DNA of 64,000 nt from Promethearchaeota archaeon (GTDB taxonomy: Archaea; Asgardarchaeota; Lokiarchaeia; Sigyniarchaeales; SOKP01), in NCBI GenBank assembly GCA_019058365.1, contig JAHPZE010000022.1:1-64000 (forward strand). Reading direction: 5' to 3'. The position numbers and the translations under genes are program-made. Each line of letters opens with the position of its first letter. The first letter of the stretch is position 1. The notes under the pieces are model-generated. The model did no database searches. It was not told the DNA's origin and saw only the letters and a list, made by a program, of their open reading frames with translations. Shown here piece after piece: positions 757 through 55,993 of this stretch.

Positions 757-759
757 AGC

Positions 760-3700
760 GTGAGCAAGAAAATGAGTAAAATGAAACAAAGATCTATAGA
801 AATGAGATCGAAATTGGATAAATACTTGCCAAAAAGTCCAGAATATTCTGAATCGGATTATGAGAAAGATTTTCGATTAGATGAGGATATAGAATTTATG
901 AACTGTATTAAACGCCATGGGATAGAACCGGCAGTGATCAATAGACAAGGGGATGAGATAAAGAGATTAAAGGAGATCGCAATGTACGAATATTTTGGTC
1001 GAGATATCACAAGAGGTCAGGAGATTTTTATAGATAAAATCAAAAATAGATCAGTGCAACCTAAAAGAAGGAGTTGCAAAGTAGGCTCTCGAGATTTCGC
1101 CAAGGTTGCTGGGCCAGAGGATATAGATTTTAAACTCAAAGTAGACTACAATCTTAAGAATTATAGCACAAAAGAAATTGATGAGGAAATCTTTAAAAAT
1201 ACTCCTTCAGGATTAGAATGTTGTATACTTGAGATAGAAGAGAATTCATCTGAATCTGGTGAATCCATTAATAGGAGTGAGGAAATATGTATGGATGTAA
1301 GCAATTCTACCGCCAGTGATAATGGCGCCACCCTAAAAGTAAAACAAGGTGCCTCCCAAAAGTTTCTAAAGTGCTTAAGAATATATCTCCTGTTTATACT
1401 CTTCAGAAATTATCTATGTTTAGTTGCTTTCGCTTCAATCCCTATTTTATTAGCTTTTTTCACTTTTGGACTATACTTCAGTTCATTCTTCTTTTTGTTT
1501 AATATACTTTTCCCGATTCTAGTGGTTTTAGCTGTATGTATATGTCTTATAGTGCCGTATTATTATTTTTACTCCATAAAACCATTTAGAAAGAGAATTA
1601 AGGAGAAGAAGGTCCCTAGTAAGATTTTTTCCTACTCTTATAAAATTATGAGAGGGATTATCATTTCATTGATTTCATTTTTATATCCCTTCTTATATGG
1701 TATCTATTTTACAGTGTCAATGCCTTCAATATTCACGGTATACCTTATCACTTTGGATTTTCTCCTCTATGGATATTGTCTTGTAAAATATATCATTAAA
1801 GGTAATGTCTCATCGCCATTAAGGCTAATTTTCACCGAGATAAGCATCGCATTTCTCTCTCTTTCCGGCATTATTCTTATTGCTAAGGGTCTTATTCAAA
1901 CGCTTTTATATATTATACCCATTTTTATCCTAATATCATATATGGTATATGTACGCCCAATAAAGAATAGAAATATTGAGGATATAATCAATAGAGATCT
2001 TAATCAGAAAATTAAGAACTCTGTTGCCAAAAATCCATTCTTTACAATAATAAAATTTTCTCTTATTTTATGTTGTATTGGTGTTATTTTTTCTCTATTA
2101 CCATTAAACTCAACAGCTTCTGCATTTATGCTTACTTTTTATACAGGAATGATTATTTTTATGGCAGCGCTATGTGGGGTTTTTCTGATAGGTTCCCTTG
2201 TTGAGAACATGAAGAGAAAAAAAGGAAATTTGTGGTGGTCCTTGTTCTTTTTGATAATAGGAGTGATAATTTGTAATTATCTCTTTTTTACGCCTCTTCA
2301 ACTCTTATTAATTCCGATATCAATCGTATTTATCTCTATTTTATTATATACGTGGAATGCCCAAAAAAGTGATAGGAAGGCTCGCCCTGTTTCGCTTATC
2401 AGCTTTTTTCTAATATTCATGACTTTGTTTTTGGCAATACCCTCAATAGTAGATATTACCTCTCCTACCTATGGGTTTGCCCAAGTTCAAAACGCAGACA
2501 GGATTGAAAGATCGGTCAATATTGAGTATTTAGAATACTATTCTTCTTTAGAAGATTTTGAGCTTACCATTAACGATAAATTTGTGGCTAAAAGTGCAAT
2601 AACTCCAAATCTAGGTACCGCATCTACCATGAGAGTGAGGATTACACCAGTAGATGTCCCCTATATAGAGGGGTATCAGATAGAGCGTTATCATGATTTT
2701 ACTTCTGAATCTGTACCTAATTATGATTATACCTATATACATCATTATGATCTTTTTACCTCTGTACCTCTGGACACAGTAGAATTGCTTCCTGGAGAAT
2801 ATGAAATAAAATTATACTACTCCGAGCTAACCTTATCGGGAGTTAGAGACGCTGACCCCGAAATATATACGATTACCCTTGATAAAGATGATCTTGAATC
2901 TCTTCCTTATGAAGATTTTAAGTTAGGAATAGAATATGGGTCAGTCTATACAATTAGAAGAAATAACTCATGGAATATAATTTATAATGGGAAAATCGTG
3001 AATTCGTTACATGAATCCGTGCCGGTAAAGAACGTAAACCTGTATTTTGAGAATTTTGATAAATGGGAAAAAGTAGCTACCGTAGATACTGATCATAATG
3101 GACGGTTTTATTTTAATTATACAAAATTTGGCGATATTGAGGAAAATCCACTCGTAAAGGTGGAATGGAATGGTCAAGATGATGTATTAGGAAGTCTCTA
3201 TCATCCCTTAGAGCATATTGAATATGCGGGGATAGAATGGAATACAGATGATAAATGGTACTTTACTGATGAAGATGGTAATGGGTATCCTCAATGGCCA
3301 TTTACACTTTATGATTTACTTCGTGTCCTCCCGAGTTATGCTGAATCCCCTCTTTCTTCTTCATTGGAGTTTATGGCTGAATTTAATGAAAATTCTGGAT
3401 CAAGTACGTATGACCGCATTCATAACCTCGAAGGTATGTTAGAGGGTAATACATCGTGGACAACTGGGAAACGGGATGGAGGCCTTGGATTTGATGGAGA
3501 GGGTATTGTAAGCGAAGGTGAGTCAATTGGGTCTATAATCTATAATGCTTATGCCAACGTTTCTTATGAATATGGGAGTGGAGGAGGCGGTGTGAGCAAT
3601 TGGCACGCTGAATCAGATTCAGAGCAATCAATTACAAGTTCAAGTTATGCTGAGAAGCATACTTTAGATTTTACTGCTCCTAATCAAGGAGATTATTTAA

Positions 3701-6700
3701 TCATTGTGAGCTGTGAGACTGCTCCCGCTTCAACAAGTTATTCTGTAGGTGTGCGAACGCAGTTAGATGATACAACTACGATTATGGAAGCTTTATACGA
3801 AGGAGTTAATTCTAATAAAGATTTAGAGTATAGATCCGAATCTACTATTTATCTAGCAGAGAGTTTAGCTAGTGGTTCGCACTCAATTGATATTGACGCT
3901 TTACGAGAAGGAGGCACTGCATATATTAGATATGCCCGCATTATAGTTTTGCGACTCGATGATTGGCTTTCCACTTCTGGGATGTATAAATATGGAGCAA
4001 ATGAAGGCGCAATTTCACTTGCAGGTGCAGAGGCATCCTATAGTGATGCCGTATCTATTACTTTTACTCCTGATATTGCCGGAGATTATTTAGTATTAGC
4101 AAGCATGGAGATGTATTGCGGTTATACTAGTGATTCTATTAGTGGTCGAATTAATTATGATAGTGCTTCTGAATATCTTCCAGTAGATAATACTGAAGAA
4201 TCATATGAAAATTATGTTACATATGAATCTAAAGACACAACAGATTGGGAATCGTTTGCATGGGGTGGTATTGTAAATATGCCTACAAGTTCTAAGACAA
4301 TTAAAGTGGAAGCGTGCAGAACTGGGGGAAGCAACGGTAATGCCGACGTAAGACGGAGAAGAATCATTGCCATCCGTATAGATGCCATGAGTGAAGATAC
4401 CGAATCTACGGAAGATGCATCACGCACATCAACGACAAGCCAATGGGCAGATAAATCAACATTAATGTTTACCCCTTCATCTCAGCAAGATTATTTTATC
4501 TTAGGCGGAATTGTTATAAAACCAGATTCAACCAGTTATCCTTCTCATGCAGAATTGACTCATACTGCGGGTACAAGTCCGGAGACTATAAGTTTAATGA
4601 ACGCGGACTCTAAAGATTCTTCAAGTCCAGCAGATTGCATTCCAATGATTGGTATCGCTATTAAAGAATTAAACGCAGAATCTCAAACAATTAAGACCAG
4701 ATATGGATATGCGAATAGTGGAGGAAATACCTATGGCAAGGGCAGCTTTATTATTGCTGTTCCGCTGGGAGGCGAGGGAGGTACTACCCAAGCTGATGGC
4801 ATTGTACGTCCTGATGGTGACGTATCTGCTGAATGGAACGTCTCTCAAGTTAACGATCATTATACTCTTATCGATGAGGTCATATTAGATACAAATGATT
4901 ATATTTACACTTCCAGTAGCGCGAGTGGTACTATTACAGATGAGTTTACTATGGGATACCTTGATATTAGCAGTGGTACAGTCACTCAAATAGCGATAGA
5001 AGTATATGGTGAAGAAATTTCCATTGATTCAACTATAGATGTATATTGCGGGAGTTGGCTAGGTAGCAAACAGTTGGATATGAGTACCGAAGGATTTTAT
5101 ACGTACACCTGGTCTGGGCTTAGTCTATCGCAGACAGATTTAAATGGGTTAAAGATCAAATTTGAATCAGAAGCTCCTCAGGGGCAAGAATCTATTTATG
5201 AAGATTTTGATTATGTTGATTTTGGAGATATTCTAGATAATACACTTGGTACTTCCAATAATGAATTTGTGATTACGGGCTGGATTCATCCTACCCTCTT
5301 CTTATCGAATATATCTGATAATGGTATTCAAAACTGCTTCTTTTCTAAAAATGGAAATATAGAAATAGGAGTTAATGAGTCCGGTTATTTAAATCTCTAT
5401 ATTAAGACAGATACTACAGAAGCAATAGCCTCTTATGGTGTTCCAGGCGCGGTTGCTTTGCATACATGGACATATGTAGCTGTACTTTACAATGATTCTA
5501 ATGTTGATGTGTTTATCGAGGATTTCTTTTATAGATCTGCACTTGGGGGTATTGCAGAACCATGGAGTGGAAGTAGCAATCTTGTAACAGGTGGGGATCT
5601 CATAATAGGGGCGGAATTAAACTCCTATTCATGCTTTACTGGGAAATTAGATGATATCTCAGTGTTTAATTCTTCTATCTCGGATGCAGAGATTGAGAGT
5701 CATGCGGGAGGTCCTACATTAGCAATTGATACCCAAATCTCAAAAGAAGATGGCGAGGGAGGATGGATTCCTATAGTTGAATCTGGGGAGATAATTGAGG
5801 GGTATATTAATTTTGAATGTAATAGCACGGGGAAGCCGATAGAAACCTTAAAATTGTACTTATCTGGAGCCCAACCCGATTTGCAGAATCCCACTCCAAA
5901 TGAATGGAATTTGCTCACTACGTTTAATTATGACGATACATATTATTCTTATCTTGTCAATAGCTATGATCTTCCTAATAGTGACAGTTGGTACTTTATC
6001 TGTAAAGCAACTGATGATATTAATAATGTGGTATACGATTCTTATAGTGTCTATTTTACCACTAATCATACATCTGAAATGATTAATTTTACCTATATAG
6101 ATACAGATGGAAGGATTAATCATAATTCTCAGATCGGTGTAAATGTTTTAGAAGACCTTGAATGGCATATTTCCTCTTTAGATCTATTTATCAATTATTC
6201 CGGCGATATTGAGTACCTTACAAATGTAACCTATAACGATCTTTGTTCAAGCTATTGGTTGATATATTTAGATTCTTTGTCCGATTGGGTTTTTAATAAG
6301 GAATTAGATCCTGATGAGTACACCATCAATTTTATTGTAGAAGTAAACCTCACGTACGATTCCGGATTTTCCAATTATCTTTATAATTATACTTTACCAC
6401 AAGTTACATTGGATATTAAAGCTCCAGATATGGTGCTTGTATCCGGAGATCCATATACCCTTTCATTAGGCTATACTTATGATATTGTTGATAACAACAT
6501 AATAACCATGGCTATTAATTCCACAGATTTTCATTTCACTCATGTTCAACTAGAGTATAAATATAATACCCCTCAAGACGCAGTTTGGAGGACATATAAT
6601 ACCTTTTATGCAGATGGTAATTCACTTGCAGAAGTATCTTTTGATATCATAAATTTACGGGATGACAATATCTCAATTCGATTTAGAGGATATGATGATC

Positions 6701-9700
6701 TTTCTAATAATGAATTGTTTTATGAATCTAATTTTTGGTTTGTGAAAGATTTCAATAATCATTTAGAATTTGTGGTTGAAGGGTTATACAATAATTTTCT
6801 CTATGGGCTTGATCAAGATGATATGGTAGATTTAGAATTACAAATTTTACCTTTCGATAACGATATTTCCAAAGTAGTTATAAGTACAAGCTATGAGACA
6901 TTTACCCTTACAACAATATTTAATGAGTACGATTATATATATTTTGAAGATGTTGGTGCTGAAGAGATAAAGTTAAATGCAACATTTTATAATATCATAG
7001 GGACAGAATTTTCCTACATTCCGATTGAGGTAAAATTGTATCAAGAAACCACTTTGATAACATCAAAGCAGATAATAATTACGGTTACTGATACCATATT
7101 TACAGACCCCGTTCAGATCTCAAATATTGAAGTTGAGACGGGGTATCTATATCCAGCGACCTATAATTTTCAAGAAGATGAAGTAGGTACGAATGGAACA
7201 TCTATAGGATTTGTAAATTCCACAAGTTCTTTAGGTTTAGCAGAGATTACTTCAGCGAAAAATGGTCATAAAAATGTCCTCCATACTCAAGGAGATACTT
7301 CTATTATTGTTTATCATCTATTTGGTTCAGCAAAATATTCTGGAATAATTGAGTTCTGGTTATATTCAAACCTTCCGACTATAGGATGGGATGTTCAATT
7401 TAAGCTTTACAGTGATATAGATGATATCGGTTATTTATTTATTGATCACAACACCGGAATGCTCCGATGGTATGACTTTTCAACATCTATAGATATTTCT
7501 TTGGGAGATATAACAAGACAGTGGAACCATATAAAAATTGAATGGGACGGAAATTCTGTTATAATATATTTGAATGGTGAAAGCGGAGTAAGTGTCAATT
7601 TTGAAAGTGGAAAAAATTCTCCTACAAAGATTGCATTATGTAATTTTGATAGTTTTGAAGCATGGTGGGATGCTTTTGGTTTTAGTTGGGACTCTGAATA
7701 TTATATTGGAACTAATGTCTATCATACAAACCTTCTTGATATTTCAAGTGGATTTGAAAATGAAGATTGGGGTACTTCTGGAACAACTGTAGGATTTATA
7801 GATAATTTAGGGACTGCTGCTAATTGCGATTCAGAAATTGTTCCTGAATTTAATGATCATAAAAAGGTCTGGCGTTTGTATGATAATAATGGAGCAGGTC
7901 AAATATGGACATGTAATTATATAGGTTCGAAAACAAGTGGTACTATTGAATATTGGATGAAAAGTTCAGATGCTGCTAACTTAGCTCTTACTCAATTAGC
8001 AAATACAGGTTGGACAAAATATGCAATTCAAGTTGGAATCGATACTGACGCATTTGTTTATCATAGTAGGATATCAGGCTGGCAGAATATTCCAAATGCC
8101 CCAACACCTCAAGATGATACATGGTATCATATTAAAATTCAGTTTGATTGTAGTACTTATAAATTTCGTATATGGGTTGATAATATTTATTCTGGAGAAC
8201 TTGATTTTTCCAATACTGCGGACGATGCATATTTCTTTGTAATGAGAACAGAGACCGCAGATAGTGGATATTATGCATATTGGGATGCTGTAGGTTATTC
8301 CTGGGATGAAGATTATTGTCTTGGAAGCAATTTAAGAGTAGAACCAGCTAATATATTCATTAGCTTTGAAAATAATCTATATGCCTACAATAATTCTCAT
8401 AGTATACCATTTATTGTAAATAACCACCCTCCAGTTATTAAACTCTATGATTCAAATAATTATCTTTTAGGTATTGCCCAACTACGACCAAATTGTGATA
8501 CATACGGAATGGAATTATATAATACTGAAACAATTGAGATTCTTGATAATCATTTTATTGTATCGCTTCCCATTCCTGGAATCGGAGAAGTTTGCTCTAT
8601 TGAAAAAGTATGGGTGATTGGAACGCAATACGATTTTTCATATTTAATAAATAGTGACGGAGATCTGTTCATCCAACTTATTACTCCAAATAAATTAGAT
8701 GGTATATATGGGGCAGCCTATCCAATAGAAGTGGAGTATGGTATTTCAACGTCATTTAAATCCACAAATCAGTTTGCTGGTAACTTTGATTTTGCCTCAT
8801 TACCACAAGATACCTACACTATCATTTTTGAGTTTTATGACATCTCTGGAGTTACTTCTACATTTGAATTAAATGAGAGTATTTTTATTGATTTTGAAGG
8901 GCCTTATATCTACAATCAATTTCCAGGATCTTCTACTTCCATAAATCCTGATTCTGATTCCATCTCATTCATTATAAATGATATGTCCCCTATTGTAGAT
9001 TATTACTTTAATAATTCCATTAATGGATTTTGGCAAGTAATCGGAGATACTTACACCTTTTATTTCAATGATACTTCAATATCAGAGGGACTAAATTCAA
9101 TTCTCTTTAATTGTGAAGATTCTCTTGGATATACATCTACAAGTTATTTTACTTTACTTATTGATAGAACCGCTCCTGACATCACCTTACTCTCAAAGAA
9201 CTTTGATGAAATCATTACTAAATTATGTTCCTTTGATGTTCTCATTGATGATAACTCCAATTATGACATATCCTTGAAGGTTGTAGATTCCAATACTAGT
9301 GTTGTGTTTAATAATTTAGAATTCATTACGATAGAGAATCCTTCAGATACATGGCAAATTCTTTTTGATACAGGACAACTCCCAGATGGTTATTATGACA
9401 TTTACATATGTGTTACCGATTCTGTAGGGAATTATGCTGAATTACTTATTGATCCCTATTTTGATAACACTCCACCCATAATTGATACACTCATAGAACA
9501 AATCTCTGTGGATGATCAAAATATCTATAATAATACTATTACTGATTCTCTCTATTTCAATGACGAAGAATATCTCTATTTATCCGCTTCTGATATTACT
9601 TCAGATGGTTTTGATTGGGGTAGCATTAGCCCGCTATTAGGAGACCAAAGAGGTGTTCAAAATGTTACAATGTATTATACTATCCCATTAGAATGGTATC

Positions 9701-12700
9701 CCCTCTCAATCTCAGGGAGTTTGGATTATGAGACACTAATTTATGAAATTACGGGTTATGGAGATCCATTGAAGGGCGATCTGACCAAAATCAAGTCCAT
9801 TCAGAACTTGAAAATAGGAGGATATACTGTTGATAAATTCAATATTATTTTGGATGGTACTTCTTTATTGCTCTCTATTGATCCTCAATATCGATACTTA
9901 TTATCCTCAGCTTTTACAGACCAGATTTACGCTCAGTTCTTTGAAGCGGTTGCTGATCCAATTAACTTATCATATAATAGTAATACTCAAAATTGGGAAT
10001 TAATATCTTTAGAAAGAAATTACTTTAACATTTCAGATTATTTGTCTCTTACTGAGGGAAACCAATTTCTTCTTTGGTTCGAATTAAAAGATGGGTTAGA
10101 AAACGAGTTAATTTCTCGTAAATATAATGGCTTTTATGATAATTATATAGGACAAGATCCTCAAGGAGCAGAATCATTTTCATGGTATTTGGGGGCTAAT
10201 TCGAGTGGAGCAGGAATTATTATTTTTGGCTCGGATAATTATCCTGATTCCACGATTCAATTCAATATCTCTTCCATAGAGCTAACTGCTTTAGGAGAAC
10301 AAGATATCCATCGCATAATGATTTATGGTTCAGTTGATTCACAAAATTGGATCTATATTGGAAGAGCGTATTATTCTGGTGAGGAAAATTTATGGAATTA
10401 CTTCTGGGACGGGGATCGATTGGATCCAGTACCACCTCAAAATTATAACCTTAAAGGTCTTTTATTTGATATAGCGGGAAATTATCTTACCCAAACTCAT
10501 TCAATTAAGATTTATGATTATACCCAGATTAATTTGATTACAGATTTAGTGTTTGGGTCGGTATTTGAATTCAATTATACCGCCTATTCAAATATTCAAA
10601 ATATCGGAGGTATGATTGAAAATTATTTTGGCTCCAATAATATATGGGATGTAATTGCTCAGTTTTATTCACCATCGGAACACACATGGATCCCACTTTT
10701 TACAAATCCAACCACAATTCATACCAACGGTTCATATGAAATAACATGGGACATTTCCCAAGATCACGGTTTTCTAGATAATATGTACAACTTTTCTTAT
10801 GGTTATTTGCCATTACAAGTCGCTTCTGCTACATCTTCTGATTTGTGGGGATCATGGGGCACTTTTGGAGATACAATCTGGAAGCCCATAATTATTTCAG
10901 ATGCAAATGGTAATATCAATATTACTATATACCTATTTAATAATGAGACAGGATGGACCGTTGATAGCTCTTTAAGTTCTGAAATAACGATTCCTAACCT
11001 TAGCAATCAGGTATTTAAATTATTTGATATCAATAAAGATAACTCTTATGAAATTCTTAGAGTCTCTCCTGCTCAAATTGACGTGTTGTTCCTCAATCAG
11101 ACCACTTCTCAATGGGAAGTACAATTAGATGTTACACACCTTTCAGGCTATGAATACCAAGCATTTGATATCTCATACGATAGAAGTTCCTCAGATACGT
11201 TTTTATTCGTTACTCAAAAAGAGACCAGTTCAAATCATTTATCCCTCTGGAAATATCAATTTACTAATCAGTATAGCCTTACCCTCATAAAATCTGTGGA
11301 ATGCCCCGAAAATTTCGAACCTTATGCTATAAAATACAGTAATTATTTCTCTGGTTCTGACCGAAAAGCTCTAATTGTAGGGGGCTTGATTACAGACTCA
11401 TACTATTCACAACTCATCGAATTTGATTCGAATCTGAACGTGAAAAATATCATTATTGATGCCATTCTGGGAAAGATATCTCTCATTGAATATGATGATA
11501 TCGGAGGGCTTGATACGATTGTACTAGGAGTGAAGAGAGTGCTCATAGGGAAAATGGATGCGGTTATCACTCTACATAGGACATCCGGAACAGAAGAGTG
11601 GGTTGAATTTGAATTATCTAATTTCGATGAAGTTAGGTTTGAAATTTTTGATCTTTTAACAATTTCTGAAGATTGTATGAAAAAATTAATTATCTCATCT
11701 AATACAGGGCTTTTTGAGACGAAAATTACCTCATTTAAAGATGAATTATCAATAACCAGTCCTATATGTTTTTATTCTGAAACATTTACTATAGGAGAGT
11801 TAGCCCCCAGTTATTATCCTGAAATTATACCAGAAAAGACTCCTTTAAGTGCCGTCAATAAAATTACCTATAAACTCTCAAGCAGTAGTGAATGGAAGGT
11901 ATTAAGTCTTAATAAATATCTAGCTTCTCCATATAAGGTAAAGATGGATTTAACTTCTATATGGACTAATTTAGAATATGTGAAAATCGCATACTCGTTC
12001 AAATCATTTGTCGCAACGGTTCGAACTTCCGTTGATCCTTCATTTAACAATAAAACAGGAGCCTCAGATACGCAATACATATCAGCTTCGGGCACCTTTT
12101 TCGATAACCTCCCCTTAAACTTCCAATGGTTAAACCCGGCAACAAGATATATCGACCCTTATGCCAACTGGATTACTTTACCAAGCTCACTTTCCTATCA
12201 GTATCAACCGGTAATTTCTGGATTAGGAAATACCGTATTTTATCCCGAAGTGTATTATGGAGCGGATAATGGATATCTCCTTGCTCCCGAATTAGAGAAT
12301 TATTTAATAGATTATGGAGATTCGTATGATTCAGGACAGCTATCGCAATATCTAAGCGGACAAGACGATTATTATACTAATATGTTTGACGGTAATTTCG
12401 AAGGGAATTATATAGATTATGTAGCTATGTCCAATCCTTACATTTCAGACAATTACAACTTTGCTGATATGTATTATCCTGAAATTCAAGGCTCCGAAGG
12501 GGTTTATAATTCTTATGGTGATGGTCAATACGTCCTTGTGCGTAATAACCTTATAGACCTTGAACCATATAACTCTAGTGTCAGTATCATATATGATTCT
12601 GGAACTCTTCCTGTGGAACTCACAGCTCATTATTTACGAGAGTTAAAAGATGATGAGCCAGACTCTGATTATACTTATGGAACAGAAGGTGTTGAAGATG

Positions 12701-30700: not shown

Positions 30701-33700
30701 CCTTTATTTTAGATTCCATAGTAGTTGATTGGATTAAAAGCTTTAAAGCACAAGATAATAATACCTTAACTATTGACTTTTATTTTGTAGCAGGTGGCGG
30801 GTACGGTTCTTATTATATGGATTCGGTTGACCTTTCTCTTGATTGGTATACCATAAAAGATGATTTAGTGTCAGGGTCATATATACTTCAATACAGTAAA
30901 GATCTTCAAGGTATTTATGATACGTATGGAGCAAGCTCACTTGATATTTATATCAGTATTTCTCAACAAGGTACTAGCGCTAACTTTATTCCCTACATCA
31001 TTCTTGAACAATTTGATTACCTCTGTGATGATCATTATGTGGAAATGTATGCTCGAATGCCGGTAAACGAAGATGAAATCCTTGATGTTGATGCAGTTAT
31101 CAACACCCCTCATTATTATCAGATTTTATCCCGACCATTCTTAGATTGCGCCTATGGAGAATCTGATTTTGATTTAATTGACGGTTCAGAAGTTACAGTT
31201 GGAATTGATGGGTTAATGTATTCAAGCTTAGTCGCATTAGATGGAACACGAGGAGATTATAACTTCACTTATTTAGGTACCCAAGAAACTCTTCCAGTGA
31301 ATTCAGAAAATTATTATATGATTCCTAATCTAGCACTTTTTACTGATGCATATAATACTGATGAGGTCATCTATCAAGACGGTTTTGTAAACCTTTATTA
31401 TGGAAGTGGTACTGATGTTCGAGGAGAATATGATTACAATAAAAGGATTTACATGGATTATTCTGGTGCTGGAGTGGATGATTATGAGTCGTATCTTAAC
31501 AATGGAGCCCCGACATCATGGGAAGCCACCTTTAATATAACCGATCAATTTTTAACCACTCAGGAAATTTCAGTCTCAGGTACAGTTCTATACCATCAAT
31601 TATTCGATTTAGGCTCCGATATTATAGATAATAGTGAATTAATTGAGATTTTACCTGATATTGAAGGGATGTTTTTCGGAATTGAACTTCCTACTGATGT
31701 AAGCATCGCGCATATTAGAACCATCGGAACTCCATACGAGTACGATTTAAGCGCTCAAGGATTTCCAATAGATCCCAATGATTATGACCAAGGTACTTAC
31801 TGTAAATTTGATGATGGTAAATCTTACACCATGAATTTTGATACGCGGGCAGAACATAGTATTATGAACTCTACCATATTTTATTCGCTTGAATTTGCGT
31901 CTAACGGCAGCAAGTATATCGTGTTTTACAAAAATTATACCACCGTACAATCCTATGCAATAGATAACTTTATTATGGTAGATTACTGGGCATATTATAC
32001 TTTTACTCAAGGGTTTGATTATAATATTGTGGAAGATCCTATCGATCCTTTTGTGTCTACGATTGTGTGGGAATTTACCGTAGATTCTATCGATTCATAT
32101 TCAATACATCCTGACTTTGCTTTCAATAGTTCCTCTTTTACCATTGATTATTCTTCGTTAGAATGGAATTTAGCAGATAATCGAAATGGGTATATCAAGG
32201 ATGGAAATGATCAGTTTACATTCCAACCTGAGATTACCACCAATATTTCGGTAGTGTACTATGGAGATGATAATGAATCATTTTCACTATTAAATATCGT
32301 TCCTGATAACCAATTCAACGACTCCCAGATATTCAAAGAAGTATATGTACAATTCTGGGATGGAGAAGACTTATCATCAGTAGATATATTCCGCATACCA
32401 GATGACATTATTATACATGACTACATATATCAAGATGTAAGCACCAGTTTCTATTATTGGATAAATTTCACTAAATGTGAGCAACGCGTACAAGATTTCT
32501 ATCCAAATTATACACTTGTACCCGATTCATATGCATTTGTTGAAATTCAATTTATTTCAGATCAATTAAAATATCCATTGACTCATACTCCATTTAATTA
32601 TGAAATGGTGCAAAGTCAACACACAACATATCATATTACGCTAAATATCGAAGGAAAAGATCCGATCTATAGTTATGAATCAGAATTTGAAAAATATGTG
32701 CTAAAAATCGAAAATAATTATATCTATTTCAACGATAAACTATACGGAGAAGAGGGTTATATCTCCAATAAAACGCAAATCTCTCTTTCCTATAAGTTTA
32801 AACTTCAGCCAGGTCTTTTAGACCAAGAACATTTCTTTATGGTGATATACCCTTGGACTAACGTATTTGATACCACAATAGATATAGATGACCCCGACTA
32901 TTATCGTGAAAAATACAGAAAACTTTCAGGAGGGTCAATTATTTCACCATTTGAATATTCTCTTTCCATTAATGATACTTATTCGCTCTATTTAAGCTAC
33001 CGTTTGAACTTAAGAGAATCTTATGACGTGAAATGTGAGATCGACTATGCTTCTGGAGAGTTGGACTTTTCCTACTTGCAAAATGGGCTTGATACTTATA
33101 TTAAAGAGTATGTGAATGATGAGGAAGCTGCAGTACGGGTGTATTATTTCGATACTGATGGAACCAAGAGACCCTTACAACAATGGCATTATACCGTAGA
33201 TCCCGTAGAGCATAAAGTAATTTTAAAAGATAATGGAAATATTATAACCACTCCAAATGAAATTTCAGAATTTTATATTACTATTATTCCTGAATCCCGT
33301 GATTATACTCTTGCTACGTATGAATATACTTATAATCCTTCCTTGAATATGTCAGATACACTTGCATTAACTCATTGGGAAGTCACCAATGGAGAACAAT
33401 TTGACGTGATCCCCAATTTCAATGCTCTGTATTATGTAAATGAACAAGAAAGCACGTTTACTCGTAGTTTATGCTATGCAACTCAAATATCCTCTTTCTT
33501 AGAGATTGGCGAAGAATTAGTATTTAATATAATCGATGAATTGCCAGAGGATGTAGTTGCTGATATTGCTTCGGGAGACTATGGCAGCCTATTCATTAAT
33601 ACAATTATGGATAATTATGAAGCGTTAGACACGCTCGTTGTTGAATTACATAGCTCATCAGCAAAGATAGGTGAACAAATATTCTCAAGAGAAGAATTAC

Positions 33701-36700
33701 TTGCGTGTGATTTCAAGCTCCAGATTGATCTTGCTGGTGCGAACGCCTTACACCATTTAATATTCAAGCCCGAATTCAGAACTGATAACGAGTATAGCGA
33801 TGATAATGTCGTCGGTATACCTTATTTTGAATTTATAGAGTGGGATGAGGCGCTTACCACCACTGATGAGGATGGAAATCTTGTAATGATGCATATTCTT
33901 GAAAAAGATCTTTTCACCAAAGATAGTCCTCTAGAAATTGCTTATATGTTTAATGATAAACTACAATGGCTAAAATTACCCGAAGATATAGCATTCAATT
34001 GGGAAATTGAAGTAGATGCTTTCAAGAGAAATATCTCTTATCTGTTGCTTCCGAGTGCGTATATAAATCCCGATGATAGTTCTGAAGTAACTTCCTTTGA
34101 AGATGGCGACTTGATTATTCTACGATATAATACACCTGTAGATAAAGCCATCCAAATTGGAGTTGAAAAAATGTATTTGAATAAGAAGCCCGCTAATCCA
34201 TCCCTTCCTTTTGCCGAAGTTATGCTTATAAACACGAATAATTCCATTGATTACAGCACATTTTCAGATCCTTACAGTTATACTTTACCCTTAAATCTTA
34301 CGCCATTCAATACGGAATATTTAGGCACTTACATGGATATTTTAGTTGATATTAACTTAACAACTCTGGAAGAATTTGCAGAAAACGGGTATCTTGACTT
34401 CTCTCATTTAGTGGTTTCTGTTCCAGACCCCGCCTATGAACTCACCTTACATGAAATTGCGATAGTACAAGAATATCAAGACGGCTTAGAGTATTCTGAA
34501 GAATTTTATAGTAGAATATGGCAATTTACAGAACGAGACAACTTTACCTCGACCGATGATCCTGAACATGACCAATATCACTTTACCTACAACAAAACTC
34601 CCCTCTACTATAACGATCCAGACAATGGTAAATGGCTCGAATATCTAAAGATCTATGATGAGAATTACAATTATTATTCCGCAGGTCTTTCCGGTGATGA
34701 GTATCAACTTTTATGGGATCCCGATTCTGGAAACTTCACATGGAATAAAGGTTTTGGTGTGTTCCAAGATTACTGGGGTATGCAAATTGAGCTTCCCGCG
34801 ATGATAGAACCTAATACCACCCTTTATTTCGAATATTGCTATAATGAGTCTTGGAATTCGCCAATTGTGATGCAATATGAAAATATTCTTTTTGAATCCA
34901 TTGATTTGGTCTATAATTGGGATTATTTGCTTACGCCCCGATATGAAATGTGGTATGGAGAAATTTATGATAATACCAATAACGGTTATGATTATGAAGT
35001 AGAACAGTATTATTCCGAAGCATTTTCGGTATATGATGATTCTTCAATCTATTCATATACATTTGAAGCAGATTACAACTTTACTACCGATTTCCTTAAT
35101 ATGTCTTTGTTTAAAGTTATCGGAGTCTATGCCAACTTTACGGAAACCGAGCTTGTAGATGATAATACTAACTATGATATTGATTTTGATATTGACAACA
35201 AAGAAATAACTATTTCGGACCTTATTTCTGGTGATGGCCTTCTCAATCAATTTGATCTGATTACTGTTATTGTAAACTTCACTTCAGGTCCAATTTCCCA
35301 GAGAACCGTTATAACCTTTTCAAATACTTTTAATGAAACCTATCTTTCTGATATTGAATCATCGTTTTATGATTATATTAGCTGCTCTTTTGATTATTCA
35401 GTCAATCAACCATCCTTTCTATTTGCAGAATCCGCTTATCACATAATTTCCGATTCTACCTCATTTATTCCGATTAATTATTCCAAAAATACGGATTTAA
35501 GCTTTGATTTCGGGATTGAAGATTATGATACAAATACCATCTATGAAAAATTTGAAATTCACGAAGACAAATATAATACGATCTATGTAGCTGATTTAGA
35601 TTTTGATGGTGAAGTGGACTATAAACAGGAAATTGATATAGATAAGAATGATAGAATAGACATCACACGCTACGGGATCGATGATCCCGAAAATCCGGGA
35701 GAAATTATTTGGTATCGTATAATACAAGATTTTGAGACTGAAGAAAAAATAATTAATAAACAGCAAGATGAAGAATTAAGAACTAATTGGTTCAAAATAG
35801 CAGATCTTGGAGTCTGGGCACAGCGTTCTGTACAAGAACAATCAAGTACCGTTCAGTTTACAGACACTAAATTCTACAGTGTAAAATTAGATGTTGATCT
35901 CGATGGCTATGCTGATAGCCAGATGACCTATCACCGAGTTACAGATACAGTTATTCATGAAAATATAGTAAATGAATGGACGGCGATAGTTAGTGCTGAA
36001 GCAGATGAATATATGACTATATATATAACTGCAGAAATAATTAACCATCTAACGATAGAATTAATTGAATCATTTGATTATGAAGTATTAAAACAATATT
36101 TAGATTATTCCCAATTTTTAGTTCTAAAAGGCTCCTATACCAAATTTAGAGAAACTTCTATTCTTTCTCACACAGAACAGACCATTCAAGAAGTACTTAC
36201 ATATATAGATTGGGAAGAAGGAGAAGTCACGAGTACTCGATCCTATGTAAATATGTTTTCAGAAGGACTTTCAGAGCTCTCATATAGAAACTTAAAGTCA
36301 GATGTATTTAGCACATTGTCAGTATATAATGAAGACACAGACCAAACACAAGAAATTAGCGGACTTCCTTTTTTCATCGCAAATTTCTCCCAGATCGATT
36401 GGCATACCGAAGTATGGGGTCCTGATGCTGTACCAATACAATTTGATACTCTTTATAGTAGCTATGGTGAAGATGAGAATACAGTTAAAAACTATTATGA
36501 AGGTACCTATTGTATAAACTTTCGCAATCGTTTTAGTCTTTATCACGACTATCAAAAAGATCTTTCTGATGATGTTATAGGCTCAACATTATTTAATGTG
36601 GAAGGTATTTTCATAACTCCCGTAGATGGGAAAGTGTATTTTACATCAACGAAAGCTGCATATCAATCTTCTGACCGTACAATGGCTAAAACTTACGGAC

Positions 36701-39700
36701 ATTATCTTTATTATGACAGCGACAAAAATGGCTTCTACGAAACCGTTTATGTATTAGCTCCTGATGAAGATGAGGATGGAGTATATGATGTTATTTCAAT
36801 TATCTATAATTATGACGGAGACCATGCAATTACGCCATATGAGATAATTAGCACCGAAGAATCATTTACTGGTAATTATATTTCCCGAAAAGTTCTTGGA
36901 ATAGATTTTCACGGTATAATAATTAATGAATTTGGAGGGTCAGTTAATAATCTTAAGGATTGGTTAGATGAGTGGTACGGAGAAATCCATGATGGGTTTA
37001 TTACCAAAGATAATGTGTTTGAGATTTATAAGCTTTTGCCGATAGAAAACGTTAATGAGTTCGCTCCTGCGTTATTTTACGAGGCATATTTAGGAGCTTA
37101 TGGTGATGCATGGAATATGTATCAAGACCAGCTTTGGGATGACGTATGGGAACAAGTTGGAATGATGGCCACTGCGGGATATATATCAGGAGGGGCCTCT
37201 ATAGCGTTAATAGCACTTGGGGCTTCAAATCCAGTGACTGCTCTCATCGGAGGTCTTATTTTCGCCGTTATATACTGCAGTTTAACATTGAGTTCTCAAG
37301 ATGCAAAGCGTCGAGAGCAGCAGAATAAAGTTTCCGCGCAAACCTATTATTCACTTGATTCGGACAATAATCAGCCAACTAATATAAACCAGAAACAATT
37401 GAACGGAGGCACTTGGGAGCATTATTCCGAGCATCCCAGTCCGAAATATATGCCCATATCTACAGGTGAAATAAACCCTCAATATGACGCAAAAGCAATT
37501 GTAACACCACCTGACAGCCTCAGAATCACTGGACGCATGGGCGATTCCAATTTTACGTTCTTCGGTATTGAAGAAAAAGAACTAAACTGGTGGGATAAGT
37601 TTTGGATGAATGTATTTGAGGCTTTAGCTGGAGGTGGCGACGCAATGGCACCAGGTTCTGGTATTAATTTCCCTGAATTTACTGATGCGGAGGAGGAAAA
37701 CATTAGAGATATGCTAAGAGCTGCTTCACATGCCTATACAAATCTGGACTACTTACTTATAACAAGCGAATTGCCATCATATAATATCATTGAATATTAT
37801 GAGTTCGATCATGGAACGGAAGATTATCGCACTATTGCATATGATAATTATAAAAGTAATACGTTAGGATTTTTAGAGCAAACCATGATTCCCGCTTCAA
37901 ATGGAAAGTATAATGCAATAAGACCGATGTGTATTAATGGTCGCCCCGCATACATGTATATTAACAGCAATGATGAGTTCAATCAGCGTATCCAACCACT
38001 TTCACCGTTATATCAACCCGTTGTCATTAGTAATGAGCGATATGGAGTGCTTTTTCCAGACGATACCATCCCAGACTCTACGATTTCAGTTGATATCCAA
38101 AGCGGATTGTTAAACGATTCCTATACTTCAGGTATTGACTCTAATAATCTTACAATTTATGAATATAAGCGAGGGTATAAAGCAAAAATTCCACTCTATA
38201 GCGATGAATTTAACTATCCAATTAGTTTGATCACGGTTGAAGTTATTACTTCAGGTGTAAGTTCAGGTCTATTATCCAGTACTTATTTTGCCACCTATGT
38301 TTCGGAAATCGAGCTTACGTCCAGTCAATATACTCTCGAAGGAGGTAATTTATACTTTTGCGAAACTTTTGATGAGATTATTCTTTCAGCTTTTAATTTT
38401 AAAGTATTGCAAGACGAGTTTCTAGAATTAACTCAGAATTGGGAGGAAGGGACCCTCTTTTATAAAGTTCATATCCACATTCCGCAAGTGATTGCAGATA
38501 CATCTACGACCGCAGGAGTTATCGATACGATATCCAGTGATGCTGGCAGAAGTGCGTTAGCTCAGACCACTCAGTATTTAATTAGTGATTTCTTTAACGT
38601 ATTCACCTTAGCAAAATCATTTGCCGAAGGTGAAGCACAAAAAGATTATACCGTACAAGTTACAGCAATTTCCACCCTGATATCTTCTTTAGCCCTTCTG
38701 CCCGTTGTTTTCGCCTCCGCTGGAGTATCGGGTTTTATTAAAGGTGCGGTTGGCAGGACTATAGGAACAACTGTAGCAAAATATGTTGCGTCGTTGCCAG
38801 TTCAGGTACTACAAGAAGTATATGAAGAGCTTTATATTGACTCATTTATAGAAGAAACATTACAGCATTTGGGCGACTCTACCGGTATCTGGGGCGTTAT
38901 TGTCACTTCATTACGGGAAGCTATACTCGGGCCAGCAGCCGAATTCCTAGGAAGCCTCAGAGGATCTTCAAACGTAGATGTAAATACCCAGATGACCGCT
39001 CAAGAAGTTCAATTACAACAAACAAGTAATATCTTACAATCATTTTTATGGACTGGTCATCATGTTATGCAAGAGGCAACATTAGATAATGCCATCTCTT
39101 CGGACGTATCAACTGAAGCTCAATTATTAAGTAATAATATAAATAAGATTCAAGCCCAACTTGCAGAACTGGGACTTACTCGACAGAAGAATAAAATAAA
39201 GGCAAAATCTATATTCGGCACGGAATTCATAATTCAAGGAATCTTCTCCCTTCCTGGACTCTTCTTTGGCGGGTTCAATTTAGGCGCGATGGGAACGCTT
39301 CTTGACCTGTCAATCGATTATATGTTTGATGTCCAATTATCTCGCCACATGATCGACAATAAAATCCAAGCGGTAACTCAAACGAAGCACAGATTAGACC
39401 TTGAAGCAAAGTATTTAGGATTAGTACGCGATGCACAAACCGTTTCTAATATCCCTCAAGTCAAGTTCGTACTTGCCATGGCACAAGGGATTGCCACCAT
39501 CAACCCAAGCCAATACAGCGCCTCCGAATTCCAAACTCAAGTACAACTGCAAATAAATCAACTCGATGCATTCGGCACAATTATAAGGTCTGTGAAAGAG
39601 AAACAGCAAAAAATCAAAGAAAGGCAGAATCAATTGGAGGTTCTAGGTAGTTCTAAAGAAAATGTCGAGAGTATAGAGCAGAAATTTCAGAATAATCCTA

Positions 39701-42700
39701 ATCCGATACAGCTACATCTCAATCTCGAATTTCTGCCTGGAATGATTGCGTTTGAGCCTCACAGGCAAGCTCTTCGCGTCTGGAGTGAGGAAAATCCAGA
39801 AGGCATCAACCTTAACCCCCCTTCCGATTTAACACTTCCCGAATTTGAGCTCTACATAAAGAATAAATTAGGATTAGATCGAAGCCAAGAAGTTTTTCTT
39901 GCGTTAACCCTAGTTGATGAGAGTACCAATGAGATAATCCAAATCAGAGTTGATGAGAAGATTGGTGATTTAGAGATTGACGATCAAACCACCATTGGTG
40001 AGATTTCCAATGCTATGAATGGATATAATTTATATATAATGCCTCTGACTGCGGGCGCTTGGGGTGGTATTAATTATGATCCAAATTATATTGTACCTAT
40101 TTATGATTGGTTGTTTGAACCCCCTTCTGTAAAGATTATAAGAGAAAAGATGGGAACACTATTTGATTCTGAAATTATATCCAAATATTTTAGTGATCCT
40201 GTATTACAAGAGCAACTTATAAACATATATTACCAAGTTATCACCCCTACAGCTAGAGCTTATTTGGATAAGATTTCTACAGGAACAGTAGGATCCGTTT
40301 TTGGAGCCAATTCTATATTTAGTGGGAAAAATTCGTTTGAATGGATTTCCAGAACTGCAGAATTTTATTATTTGTTACAGTTAGAAAATTCTCCTCAATA
40401 TAAAAATATGAATCTAAAACTAAAGAATGCAAAAATTAAAGAATTCAAAGCATATATCAGTGAAATAATCGAATTTGTATTGAAGCCTCGATTCGAGAAC
40501 ACATTTGATGATGCTAATAAAGGCTTAGATTTTATTAAATCTTTATTAGAAGAGAGTGCCCGATATGCAATTATGGAAATGATTTTGTTACAAATTACAG
40601 ATGGAGGTAAAACTAAATTAGAAGGATCTGAGTTAGCTTCCAAATTAGAAAACTTTTTAGCTAGTTATGACAAGAATAAGTTCATTAAAGAGTTTAATAA
40701 AAAAGGTACTAAATTTGTGCAACTCCGTTTCATGGAGAGCATGCTTACAGGTGAGTGGGATACACAGATGCGCTTTGATTACACTCCATATGAAATTGGC
40801 TGGTACCGTGAGACTTTTTCATTTATGTTCCTTATTAGTGATTCTCTTATTAAATTGTTTTTTGATGATGAGTTTGACTTAATGGCGGGGTATGATAGTA
40901 GTGCAGATAAGCATACAAGAATTCAATTTTATCAGACAATTTCGTATAATCCAAAATATGTTCACAAAGATTTTAAAGATTTTATTGATACCGATCTTGA
41001 AGCCGTTTATAAAAAGTTAAATAATGGGTTAGCTGAAACTTTTGGAAATTTAAAGAAGCAGAATTTCAGAATCACTGACCTCTTCCAGATGTATATTAAG
41101 GGACTAGCATATATCAATTATGCCATCAAGAATTCTAGGACCTCTGATAACGAACTAATGCTTAATAATATCGCAATGGATACTTTAAGCACTATTTTTG
41201 GTGCGTTCTTTAAAAAAATATCTGATAAAGGTACAGCAGCTGAGATTGAGAAACAAATAGAAGTATTAGTAGTTGCTAGTAAGGTTGGAGAGATTGCTCC
41301 TATTGGTAAGATTATTAATACTATAGTAGAGACGCATAAATTAAGTCAGCTCCATCAAGCGGGAAAAGAAGATGGTTTTTGGGTAGAGGGTGAAGGAACA
41401 GGTAAAGGTCCTGACCAAATGGAATTCTATATTACTATAGCAGATAAAATAAATGAGAAGTTAAAATCAGAGTCTATTGATAGATCCGATATTAATAAAG
41501 TTGTAAAGAAAATTCAATCTTATTTAAAAGATGTGGATTTCAAAGATGAAATTAAAGATATAGCTAAAGATATTTTAGGAGCAGCCTATAAAGATATGGC
41601 GGTCAGTGAGATTTATAATATTGTTAATAAAGAGTTCATAGGGGGTAATCTGAAGAGAATACTTAAACAAGATGATCAGGGTAACTATCAACTTGAGTGG
41701 GATATAACAATAAATGTATATAAACGTACTGATATTGATATTGACGAGGCAAAATTAGCGAATTCAGGACTTTTCTTTGTTATAAAAGATAGAAGTGGAA
41801 AATTAGCTAAGATGACTTATTCCCAAGTTAAGCAAATGTATCCTAAATTTGATTTTAAACAAGCATGGATAGCCGTAAAGGATAGGAATAGTGGCAATGG
41901 ATTAATGTCAGCAACAGAGAAGATCAATGATTTACCAGATTCATTGGAGAATGATATTTCAGATAAGTTTGGGGATATTGAAGGAGTCTATATAACAGAC
42001 CATAGTGGAAAACTCTTACTCGGAAGGATATTTCTTGACAAAGATTTCTATGAATTTGCTGTTATGGAGGATGCAGAGATTTCTCAGCTCTTAAGAGAAA
42101 GTATAGAGCATATTAAGAATTATGATTTCCCCGGCGCTGATAGGATCAATGAATTTTTCCATCTTACATATTTACGTTCGATTTCTTGGAAGACGGGAGG
42201 GAGAATTAGCTCAATTATTCAAGATGTTGATTCAGCAATCATCCCTACAGGACCTCATAAATCAATTTTTTCCATAGAGAGAGCAGCAGTTATTCTAGGG
42301 AAAGAACATGTGATACTCAATCCAGACCGAAATAAAATTACTGAATTGAAAGGGGAATTATCTGCATTATTGAATGTTATTAATCAACTAGGTGGACTGT
42401 ATACTTCCCACGAATTATATAAAGAGAGTGAAATAACTCCTAAGATATTTCCAACTAAAGATTTTGCCAATTTACATTCAAAAGAGAAGATATTTGGAAT
42501 TAATGAATTTAGAACAATGTTAGAAAAAGTGGTGCCAAAGCAAGGAGGGTGGCTGCACAATAAAGATCCTTCCAACCCGTTACTTTCAGATTATTGGTAT
42601 GAACATCTTGCACGATTTTCTGAATATTCTTATAATAATAAGCTAACAAAGGAACAATTTTATAAGAATTGGCTTTTAATAATTCAGAATGATTTAGAGA

Positions 42701-44406: not shown

Positions 44407-44423
44407 TTCTTTCTTTTTTATTC
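44407..44423 (+). terminator. T-rich 17-bp spacer; probable archaeal oligo(T) terminator of the giant gene
   Basis: TTCTTTCTTTTTTATTC lies directly after the TAA, between convergent genes. Confidence 0.4.
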
Positions 44424-46046
44424 TTATCCATATTTACTTGTGTGAACCGTCCATTTGCCAAACTTTGTTTTTAGCCACTCAATTTCGGATTCACTAATTT
44501 CTGTTCCTTCTATATAAAGGCTTTGTAGAGATTTAAGGTTAATAGTTGTTGGCGGTAAACTTCGTATAGGATTATCACTAATGGAAATTATTTCCAGCTT
44601 ATCTAATTCTCCAATACAAGGAGGTAATTCTGAAATATTATTATTTCGAATTCTTAAATCTTTCAATGTTTTTAGTTTACATATTGATTCAGGCAATCTT
44701 TCTATTTGATTTTCTCCACATTCGAGATTTACTAGTGAAGTCAATTTACCAATAGAAGAAGGAAGTGTTGATATTTTATTACTGTCTACATCAAGCCATG
44801 TAAGAGTTTTAAGATCTCCTATTGATATAGGTATTTCTTCTAGAAGGTTTTTACTTAGAGTGAGAGTTTGTATCGATTTAAGGTTCCCAATAGAATCCGG
44901 AAGTTGCTTTATCTGATTATTATAAAGGTCTGCATATCTGAGAGAATTTAAATTCCCAAAAGATTTTGGAAGAGTCATTAATTTATTATCGCGTAAATCT
45001 AGTCTCTTTAAAGAAAGAAGATTTCCGAATGATTCTGGTAAAGTTTCAAGTTCATTATCAAATAAATTTAAGTTTTCTAATCTTTTCAAATTCCCAAATG
45101 ATTCAGGTAATTTTATTAGTTTATTGTTGCTAAGATTTAACTTTTTTAGAGAAGTCAATTTTCCAAACGATTCAGGAAGCATCCTTAATTGATTCGAAGA
45201 AATTCTTAATTCTTCTAATGATTTAAGATTTCCAAATGATTCAGGTAATTTTTCCAAATTTACAAATATCCTAAGTTTTTTTACAGATTTCAATTCCCCA
45301 ATCCAATCGGGAAGACTTTTCAATTGGTCGCTTGAAATACGTAATATAACTAAGTTTTTCAAGTTTTTTATTATTTCAGGTAATTCTTCTATATAACACC
45401 TTGCAAGATTAAGTTCCTTCACTATTCCTTCTTCCAATAGAAAGCTCTGATCATAGCGAGAGTCTTTCGAATCTAAATAGAATTCTTTTTCTGTTAATCT
45501 TTCTAGTTCCTTTATAGCGTTCTCTTCTTCTACTAATTTGAACAGGCTATATTTTTCTTCTCCTGTTATCAACTTCATATATTTTTCTTGGAGCAAGAAT
45601 TTTTGGACGTTCTTCGTCCCGTTAAAGAATCGAGAAATTATTTCTTCTTTAAATCTTTGTTTTGCTTTTAAATCTCCGACTTCAGTCAGTCTTTTTAATA
45701 AGGGGAATGAAAGGTTGCTGTGAAGGAGTCGGGTATCATAATTATGTTCTGCCCATGCTTGAATATTTGAGCAATGAACCAAGAATCTCACATGAGGTGG
45801 AATATCTATTACTTCCACTTCAAAATTATCCTCATACATATGGTAAGGAGCATTAGCCACTTCATCTACAGACAATTCTGTTAATTCATCAATAGAATCA
45901 ATTTGTTGAAGCTCTTTTAATCTGTCAGCTTGTCTATTTAGTAAAATGATTGAGCAATGTTCGAACAATTCTCCATTTACATAAAGATTTGTCTTCTCAT
46001 CTTCAAGTTTCAAAGTAATAAATTCATTTATTTTATATTCAACCAT
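44424..46046 (-). CDS. Leucine-rich repeat protein with Lokiarchaeia-type N-terminal domain
   Basis: About 13-14 repeats of 23 aa (LxxLxLxxNxLxxLPESFGNLxx). The N-domain Y/FKINEFITLKLE...HCSNIQAWAEHNYDTRLLHSNLSFPLLKRL is one I recognise from expanded Loki LRR families. No signal peptide or TM segment. Confidence 0.93.
   Translation of the reverse strand: MVEYKINEFITLKLEDEKTNLYVNGELFEHCSIILLNRQADRLKELQQIDSIDELTELSVDEVANAPYHMYEDNFEVEVIDIPPHVRFLVHCSNIQAWAEHNYDTRLLHSNLSFPLLKRLTEVGDLKAKQRFKEEIISRFFNGTKNVQKFLLQEKYMKLITGEEKYSLFKLVEEENAIKELERLTEKEFYLDSKDSRYDQSFLLEEGIVKELNLARCYIEELPEIIKNLKNLVILRISSDQLKSLPDWIGELKSVKKLRIFVNLEKLPESFGNLKSLEELRISSNQLRMLPESFGKLTSLKKLNLSNNKLIKLPESFGNLKRLENLNLFDNELETLPESFGNLLSLKRLDLRDNKLMTLPKSFGNLNSLRYADLYNNQIKQLPDSIGNLKSIQTLTLSKNLLEEIPISIGDLKTLTWLDVDSNKISTLPSSIGKLTSLVNLECGENQIERLPESICKLKTLKDLRIRNNNISELPPCIGELDKLEIISISDNPIRSLPPTTINLKSLQSLYIEGTEISESEIEWLKTKFGKWTVHTSKYG
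44490..45422 (-). repeat. 69-bp-period LRR array
   Basis: Recurrent LPES codons (e.g. TGATTCAGGTAATTTT on the + strand near 45099 and 45237). Confidence 0.85.
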
Positions 46047-46574
46047 CTGAATAAAACATATTTTCTTTTTATTTCAAGTTAAATAGTTTATTTTTAAATA
46101 TGAAGGGAAAATGTGAGTTATTTAATAGAATAAAAGAAAGCAAAAATATTTAAATTTTAAGAGATAGTTTAATTTCTGACTTTAAAAGTTATCATCACAT
46201 ACCTTTCTTTTTGAATCTGGGTTAATATTTTCATAGTATAGATTGTAACCCTCTTGATTCTTGAAATAAGGCATAAGAGCTAGGAACTTATAAAATTCTA
46301 TATTTTTTGTAATAAAAGATTCCAAAAATACTTTTCTAAATTAAAAAATCTGTAGTTATATTAATTATAGGTATAAAATTTTACACTTTTAACAATGACA
46401 AAAGCAGAAATTATTGAACTTTTTTCATTTTAATTTATTTTAATGAAAAAGAGATTGACTATTTTGTAAAAAGATTTAATATATATATTGAAATTAATAA
46501 AAAGTTTCACAAAATCTATAGTTAAAACAAAAGATCCCTTGCAATTCACTTTTGAAAGTAATTAAAAAAAAATA

Positions 46575-48032: not shown

Positions 48033-48084
48033 ATAATCACATCTCTTTTTCTCATTTAATTAAATTTAAAATTTAAAAATTTAT

Positions 48085-55990: not shown

Positions 55991-55993
55991 TTT

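Follow-up and report, generated by a model that had tools for sequence, protein, structure and literature searches.

Giant anchored proteins with exchangeable C-terminal tips in Promethearchaeota, a probable polymorphic toxin system

The stretch of DNA analysed here (the window) comprises positions 1 to 64,000 of contig JAHPZE010000022.1 from a Promethearchaeota archaeon (assembly GCA_019058365.1) and carries a giant open reading frame (ORF; 760-44406, + strand) of 14,548 codons counted from GTG 760. Comparison of the encoded protein with its homologs shows an anchored giant with a conserved body, swapping of tips with orphan cassettes that lie dispersed, and partner genes that accompany the tip. 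Judging from sequence comparison and structure models, we consider it probable, at roughly three chances in four, that the family is a polymorphic, contact-dependent toxin system with its own archaeal carrier. A contact-dependent delivery weapon had been proposed for this DNA in an earlier note made from the sequence alone. At the family level this proposal is favoured by the polymorphic tips, the orphan cassettes, the co-varying partners, and export without glycosylation, but it is weakened for the window copy, in which the tip motif is degenerate and the leucine-rich repeat (LRR) partner belongs to a generic family of nine members.

The giant ORF is real, as shown by its collinearity with relatives and by the even coverage of the one contig that holds it. 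It contains neither a stop codon nor an N and is by far the longest ORF in the genome. Relatives in three other species (12,736, >11,797, and 20,619 aa) also start with anchors of several transmembrane (TM) helices, and the window giant is collinear with these three over aa ~500-12,800, with identities of mostly 30-65%. The region 28,000-47,500 is spanned by a single 48.9-kb contig with flat 77x coverage and zero differences, which probably derives from the source run, and near-identical pieces were found in two other samples of the study that yielded this contig. In addition, a tip related to that of the window sits on related bodies elsewhere. The single chain of 14,548 aa described in the earlier note thus stands, and the chimeric assembly that it had allowed for is ruled out by the collinear giants, the related tip on related bodies, and the even contig. 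The start is probably ATG 772, giving 14,544 aa, because an MSK.K start recurs in the homologs of G003 and G024. A 102-aa ORF (471-779, +) that overlaps the giant's start is without an NCBIfam match and may not be a gene.

To collect family members, a profile was built from the pre-toxin helical domain (aa 12,591-12,732; 38530-38955, +), a conserved family marker that includes a marginally hydrophobic helix. This domain was present in 51 of the 134 genomes of the host's Promethearchaeota family and in 3 of ~265 other genomes of the phylum, and 23 matches lay within frames of at least 9,000 aa. The ~90 complete tails fell into more than 30 tip clusters. No BLAST similarity was detected in the last 300 aa of 33 of the 42 pairs whose bodies share 55% identity or more (about 4 of these 33 look like distant kin), among them pairs with 85-95% identical bodies inside single genomes; the body tree is a quick version for descriptive use only. 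An invariant C-terminus is ruled out by these tip clusters and by the unrelated tips on close bodies. Orphan tip cassettes (n = 26) were found behind unrelated genes in relatives. In G126 an identical orphan cassette, consisting of a LAGLIDADG and CdiA-like tip with its partner, occurs at L113 2032-5781 and L114 3553-7302 behind different genes, which by sequence identity is a recent duplication. Two full-length giants (L063 2-14485 and L083 2-18960) each have a further tip-partner cassette, an orphan one, 5-7 kb downstream.

The window protein is a mosaic with two breakpoints, one at each end of an exchangeable cassette (aa 12,956-13,103; 39625-40068, +) ending in PLTAG. As far as aa ~12,955 the body matches the giant of G005 and an orphan of G061 with a DNA identity of 69-80%, while the cassette is 78% identical to another orphan of G005, which departs right after PLTAGAWGG. 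Identities between the window tip and its relatives are mostly 20-40%. The polymorphism after PLTAG on a conserved upstream part, which the earlier note had suggested looking for, was actually found as an exact break after this motif relative to two orphan cassettes.

The partner gene of the window (44424-46046, -) encodes a 540-aa protein with an N-terminal domain and LRRs, a candidate immunity protein in which no hydrophobic signal was seen; it lies tail-to-tail with the giant, 17 bp from its stop, as had been described before. Across the family, most downstream partners are no more than 120 bp away and 20 of 86 are convergent. LRR-type partners account for 49 of these 86, compared with 21 LRR ORFs among 4,159 in the window's genome, and long tips of the window's type are nearly always adjoined by an LRR-type gene. 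The non-LRR partners follow the tip and not the body: they were related in 17 of 22 related-tip pairs on distant bodies, compared with 3 of 28 unrelated-tip pairs on close bodies and 19 of 603 background pairs (pairs within these counts are not independent). The expected co-variation of the downstream gene with the tip was therefore observed for non-LRR partners at the family level. Two ORFs of G000 (C9:97310-97501 and C16:361918-363000) match two partner families of relatives, lack the cognate tip, and are possible orphan immunity genes.

The CdiA toxin of PDB 7M5F, whose CdiA-CT is a BECR-fold RNase (PMC8616854), has homologs in one tip family (E 3e-6). The complex predicted for such a CdiA-like tip of a relative with its own partner passed with a score of 0.83, compared with 0.01 for the best control; 58 of 80 solved pairs and 2 of 110 mismatched pairs came up to the mark applied. 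At least 87% of contacts are shared between runs, the predicted local distance difference test (pLDDT) of the partner is at least 83, and an invariant His lies under the interface. A comparable complex has been solved (7M5F), and the relative's partner is without a sequence match to CdiI or in the PDB. Pfam matches in other tips were to GIY-YIG, LAGLIDADG, and PBECR1, and HNH and PD-(D/E)xK motifs were seen by inspection in many more tips, most of which fall below every profile threshold. PDB profile searches with three other tip clusters gave no significant match (RecB nuclease at E 0.29). From these motifs and matches, most short tips appear to be nuclease-type. The tip of the 20,619-aa member (G024 C13:86445-148304) looks papain-like, with Cys, His, and Asp recognized by inspection.

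The long tip of the window consists of module A (aa 13,104-13,850; 40069-42309, +), which carries a PD-(D/E)xK-like motif (E13326, D13440, and [E]xK13457), and module B (aa 13,851-14,548; 42310-44406, +), the model of which has a pLDDT of 83 and a predicted template modelling score (pTM) of 0.83 and is without a fold match. The two modules are shuffled independently of each other in homologs, and the majority of module-A homologs retain the E...D...ExK motif. Neither module was assigned in Pfam, NCBIfam, Atlas feature, or PDB profile searches or in Foldseek, VIA, or Atlas fold searches, the latter made with multi-domain models that do not imply novelty of the folds. In L062 (3-10474) a long tip of modules A and B is lengthened by a CdiA-like domain, and then follow the partner of that domain and a convergent LRR-N gene, an order that looks as if each tip module had kept its own partner.

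The fate of the tips is indicated by their near lack of N-x-S/T glycosylation sequons, of which 4 were counted and 538 expected from composition (ratio 0.01). N-x-C was likewise depleted (1 vs 18 expected), while the non-glycosylatable N-P-S/T was enriched (44 vs 16) and the control motifs were normal (reversed, 512 vs 538; shifted, also normal). The partners have 184 sequons vs 199 expected, and the cytosolic background ratio is 0.92. No sequon at all was found in 87 of 91 tips vs 5 of 194 long cytosolic proteins, and the depletion was reproduced in metagenomic homologs (8 vs 171 expected) and orphan tips (0 vs 138). Sequons disappear from the pre-toxin helical domain to the C-terminus; in the window none occurs past aa 12,465, and aa 12,656-14,548 contain 0 vs 12.6 expected (Poisson P 3e-6). 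The oligosaccharyltransferase AglB is encoded in the genome, and its other large extracellular proteins have 1.5-2.1 times the expected sequons. Because a cytosolic domain escapes such selection and the other surface proteins are sequon-rich, it is most likely that the tips are exported and meet AglB yet are kept unglycosylated, a property that threading through a membrane would call for. The identity of the membrane that the tip crosses is something we infer.

The architecture ahead of the tip agrees well with what the earlier note had described. Eleven hydrophobic segments at aa 219-564 (1414-2451, +) form a predicted polytopic anchor without a family match; their consistent positive-inside pattern predicts that the stalk is outside the cell, and a 12th helix may exist. 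The hydrophobicity values used were those of Hessa. The number of anchor TM helices differs among homologs, from about 5 to 13. The N-terminal 210 aa (772-1389), presumed cytosolic, contain 5 sequons vs 1.2 expected, by chance or owing to a 12th helix placing them outside. The extracellular stalk (aa ~570-11,600; 2467-35559, +) is sequon-bearing and acidic, with a net charge of -36 to -75 per 500 aa, and is composed of repeated modules of ~200 aa, a LamG/ConA-like lectin domain (PF13385; 5212-5694, +; Pfam, E 2e-15), and weak matches to immunoglobulin-like (Ig) domains and carbohydrate-binding modules (CBM). Compared with the other giants it is 40-60% identical and collinear, with gains and losses of modules. 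Next comes a region with long predicted strands and four DxDxDG-type loops at aa 11,612-12,013 (35593-36828, +), which are putative Ca sites as metal binding is suggested by the loop motif. Gly/Ala-rich hydrophobic blocks were located at aa 12,133-12,180, 12,634-12,652, and 12,823-12,856, and the first of them, a predicted hairpin (37156-37299, +), lies in or beside the family-wide sequon-poor zone. The abrupt change at the C-terminus is also evident, with Lys content rising from 2-4% to 8-10% past aa 13,000.

The slot between body and tip is where release of the tip would take place. The model of aa ~13,002-13,086 within the exchangeable cassette may have a beta-grasp fold; its fold matches were solely to UBL, RA, FERM, PB1, TBCE, and MCU-N chains, albeit weak ones (Z 4.1-5.0, root-mean-square deviation 3.1-4.0, 63-89 aligned residues, low pLDDT), and the Atlas leads to beta-grasp in the same segment were sub-threshold (under 0.9). 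No Pfam match was obtained for this segment, and its hhalign comparison with the ThiS and ubiquitin proteins of the genome was not significant. The claim of a ubiquitin-like segment ending in a Gly motif thus holds for the PLTAG end, but its fold is weakly supported. In a relative the slot holds a ThiS domain above the Pfam cut-off, and in six tails (L031, L063, L096, L107, L117, and L118) an S24/S26-type signal-peptidase-like domain, with Ser and His retained, precedes the tip. PLTAG at the end of the cassette is similar to IPASTAG, with which two ubiquitin-like proteins of the window's genome end; seven JAB-type protease matches were found in this genome. The near-identical ubiquitin-like genes G000 C34:128717-129049 and C16:301117-301449 end in PASTAG, not GG, and the C34 copy is 2.3 kb from a JAB-like gene. 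Just ahead of the beta-grasp slot, many homologs have Asp-Pro, a possible self-cleavage site, and the window has Glu-Pro (~39754-39759). As a Gly end is not clearly recognizable in many members with long tips, we only hypothesize that the tip is released by cleavage at the Gly end of the beta-grasp module, and its use as an unfoldase handle is as plausible.

Taken as a toxin system, the giant might work as follows. The chain beyond the anchor would be exported past AglB, and the glycosylated stalk would hold the C-terminal part far from the cell, where its lectin and Ig modules may bind a neighbouring cell. The Gly/Ala-rich helices would then insert into the neighbour's membrane, and the last ~2,000 aa, which are free of sequons, would be threaded into its cytoplasm. 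There the beta-grasp module could serve as a release site for a JAMM-type protease of the target or as an unfoldase handle, a place taken by an S26-type peptidase in other members. The tip, usually a nuclease, would act inside the target, while the cytosolic partner would protect siblings. A bolder version is that Promethearchaeota have an injection system in which a single glycoprotein of 10,000-20,000 residues threads unglycosylated cargo, the ubiquitin machinery of the target imports and releases it (through the ubiquitin-like handle and JAMM cleavage), and LRR proteins are the intracellular sensors or antidotes; we offer this only tentatively and lean toward doubting it in this complete form.

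Several observations weigh against a toxin system, most of them concerning the window copy. Its module A has Ala13455 (GCC, 41122-41124) at the position of the catalytic Glu, which is Glu in 11 of 11 aligned homologs, so that AIK replaces ExK and the PD-(D/E)xK triad is incomplete. In a wider set the catalytic Glu is missing in about 11 of 28 module-A homologs, roughly a third being degenerate, and the nuclease fold of module A was not confirmed by structure or profile searches. Because of this degenerate motif, any toxicity of the window copy would probably rest on module B, and we would give about even odds that the copy is toxic. Its LRR partner is convergent and not co-transcribed, like 20 of the 86 partners, and the N-terminal domain of this protein is common to 8 other genes of the genome (family n = 9). 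This LRR family is generic and multi-copy, and the LRR-N partners do not form a single clade. For the window copy the co-variation of tip and partner is inseparable from vertical inheritance, and no orphan tip cassette was found in the window's own genome. In some relatives an apparently ordinary gene lies downstream, such as a small GTPase after the G024 giant, and many members with long tips lack an evident Gly end motif.

The same observations lend some weight to another explanation, namely that long tips of the window's type, in which the nuclease motif is often dead, are exported and translocated in the same manner but as a non-lethal signal or for kin recognition and are read by LRR proteins of the recipient, or that the window copy is a decayed toxin. 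The missing Glu of the window and of about 11 of 28 module-A homologs, a module B without a known fold, and a convergent partner from a generic multi-copy LRR family would all suit it, and cooperative behaviour is also mediated by contact-dependent inhibition (CDI) systems (PMC8616854). However, the short tips are mostly nuclease-type, one of them being homologous to a CdiA toxin, and most module-A homologs keep the motif, and we regard this explanation as unlikely. The tip may instead be directed at the producer itself, the exported tip being re-imported on contact with a virus or predator and leading to dormancy or death, with the partner as antitoxin. The sequon test would allow this, as it indicates that the tip is exported and threaded but leaves the membrane concerned unspecified; however, a cognate inhibitor that is always present would prevent the effect, and the dispersed orphan tip-partner pairs and the fast swapping of tips between close strains fit competition between cells, which makes a self-directed trigger quite improbable.

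Topology bears on the giant receptor that the earlier note had offered as its alternative, in which the C-terminal helices cross the membrane of the producing cell and leave a cleavable domain in the cytoplasm. Sequons do stop near the hydrophobic helix aa 12,634-12,652, and this region is TM-like in G003, G014, and G024, but the helix is just marginally hydrophobic across homologs. A cytosolic domain never encounters AglB and should have sequons at the background ratio of 0.92, as the partners have, whereas the ratio in tips is 0.01 with N-P-S/T enriched; a receptor is therefore strongly disfavoured. It is about as hard to believe that the giant is an adhesin whose tip is an extracellular enzyme, degrading environmental DNA or acting against viruses, with selfish homing-type nucleases having settled at a tolerant C-terminus. 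GIY-YIG, LAGLIDADG, and HNH tips are indeed typical of mobile endonucleases; however, the other large extracellular proteins of the genome are sequon-rich, a cytosolic tip-specific partner would be pointless, and a CdiA-type RNase tip has a partner predicted to cover its active site. The polymorphic toxin system thus remains the explanation that we prefer.

Beyond the partner gene, glmM, SIS, glmS, and glmU-like genes, which are related to amino-sugar precursors, are located at 51462-57298 of the window, 5-11 kb from the giant, and another glmU-like gene (L021 6776-8068) lies past the giant of G005 by about 2.5 kb. The gene cluster at 46575-50838 (-) encodes an FGGY kinase, a CCG/Fe-S protein, and an FAD-linked oxidase and belongs to ordinary metabolism. 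The intergenic segments 46210-46349 and 46744-47014 match other contigs at about 85-90% and are possible small dispersed repeats.

If the toxin system is true, archaeal relatives of eukaryotes would possess a widespread cell-to-cell weapon, present in at least 38% of the genomes of one family, whose carrier resembles none of the bacterial delivery routes. Some of the many LRR proteins of Asgard archaea may then have a role in immunity or sensing, and ubiquitin-like domains would be tied to cargo release. The near-total loss of glycosylation sites would be a simple mark in genomes by which membrane-crossing archaeal proteins could be found, and the small tip-partner pairs are directly testable in laboratory hosts.

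Teneurins are membrane-tethered giants with a toxin-like tip, and MARTX proteins carry several shuffled effector modules. The usual carriers of such tips (YD/RHS, FHA, RTX, and Hint) had not been visible to the earlier note, and none was matched in Pfam or NCBIfam profile searches of the giant; the YD/RHS repeat shell of Rhs and teneurin proteins (compared at the sequence level only) and the RTX or MARTX repeats and CPD protease of MARTX/RTX toxins were likewise not matched by profile search. Among archaea, the VARTIG modules of Thermococcales (PMC8416519) also combine a large protein that contains Ig domains and is hypervariable at its C-terminus with a variable set of downstream genes, but by their description they belong to another lineage, and the variable domain at their end is an Ig domain instead of an enzyme. 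Polymorphic toxins had been predicted for archaea and in 2021 still awaited a test (PMC8416519). The Aloposon giants Otus and Ephialtes and other giant proteins of Asgard archaea are also without known function (Wu et al., 2022; PMC8813620), and no toxin role was proposed for them (PMC8813620). By description, Otus and Ephialtes are 3,000-6,000 aa long, and their tandem genes lie, along with one for a ParA-like protein, on tRNA-integrating elements, whereas the window giant is single and without such neighbours. A published description of the present Asgard system was not found in literature searches, which mostly did not cover subscription papers.

CdiA/CdiI (Serratia marcescens BWH57, PDB 7M5F; PMC8616854) likewise puts its toxin on a long tethered stalk, and one Asgard tip family is homologous to the CdiA-CT RNase. 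Unlike CdiA, the Asgard giants are without CdiB or haemagglutinin repeats, are 3-5 times longer, belong to a single-membrane host, and have a partner without a sequence match to CdiI; neither the TpsA secretion domain nor haemagglutinin repeats were matched over the giant in Pfam or NCBIfam, and the window contains no cdiB-like neighbour. The family shows every genomically testable feature of polymorphic toxin systems (Zhang et al., 2012; PMC3482391), namely an anchor with an adhesive region, a variable C-terminus, toxin folds, standalone cassettes, and a co-varying neighbour. Such systems were called rare in archaea (PMC3482391). The bacterial systems, which include Imm-LRR, are alike in their anchor, adhesive stalk, pre-toxin or release slot, variable nuclease end, adjacent immunity gene, and standalone cassettes (PMC3482391). 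In contrast to them, the Asgard carrier is a polytopic-anchored glycoprotein of 9,000-20,600 aa without a TpsA, FilH, RHS, PAAR, LXG/WXG, or PVC signature, and its release slot holds beta-grasp or S26-type modules, which are outside the published list (HINT, ZU5, PrsW, caspase, and MCF1-SHE); in addition, it has dispersed orphans, a convergent orientation of 20 of 86 partners, and a predominance of LRRs. Judging from these sequence comparisons, we regard the family as a variant of polymorphic toxin systems that differs in its carrier, its release modules, its dispersed orphans, and its LRR-dominated partners.

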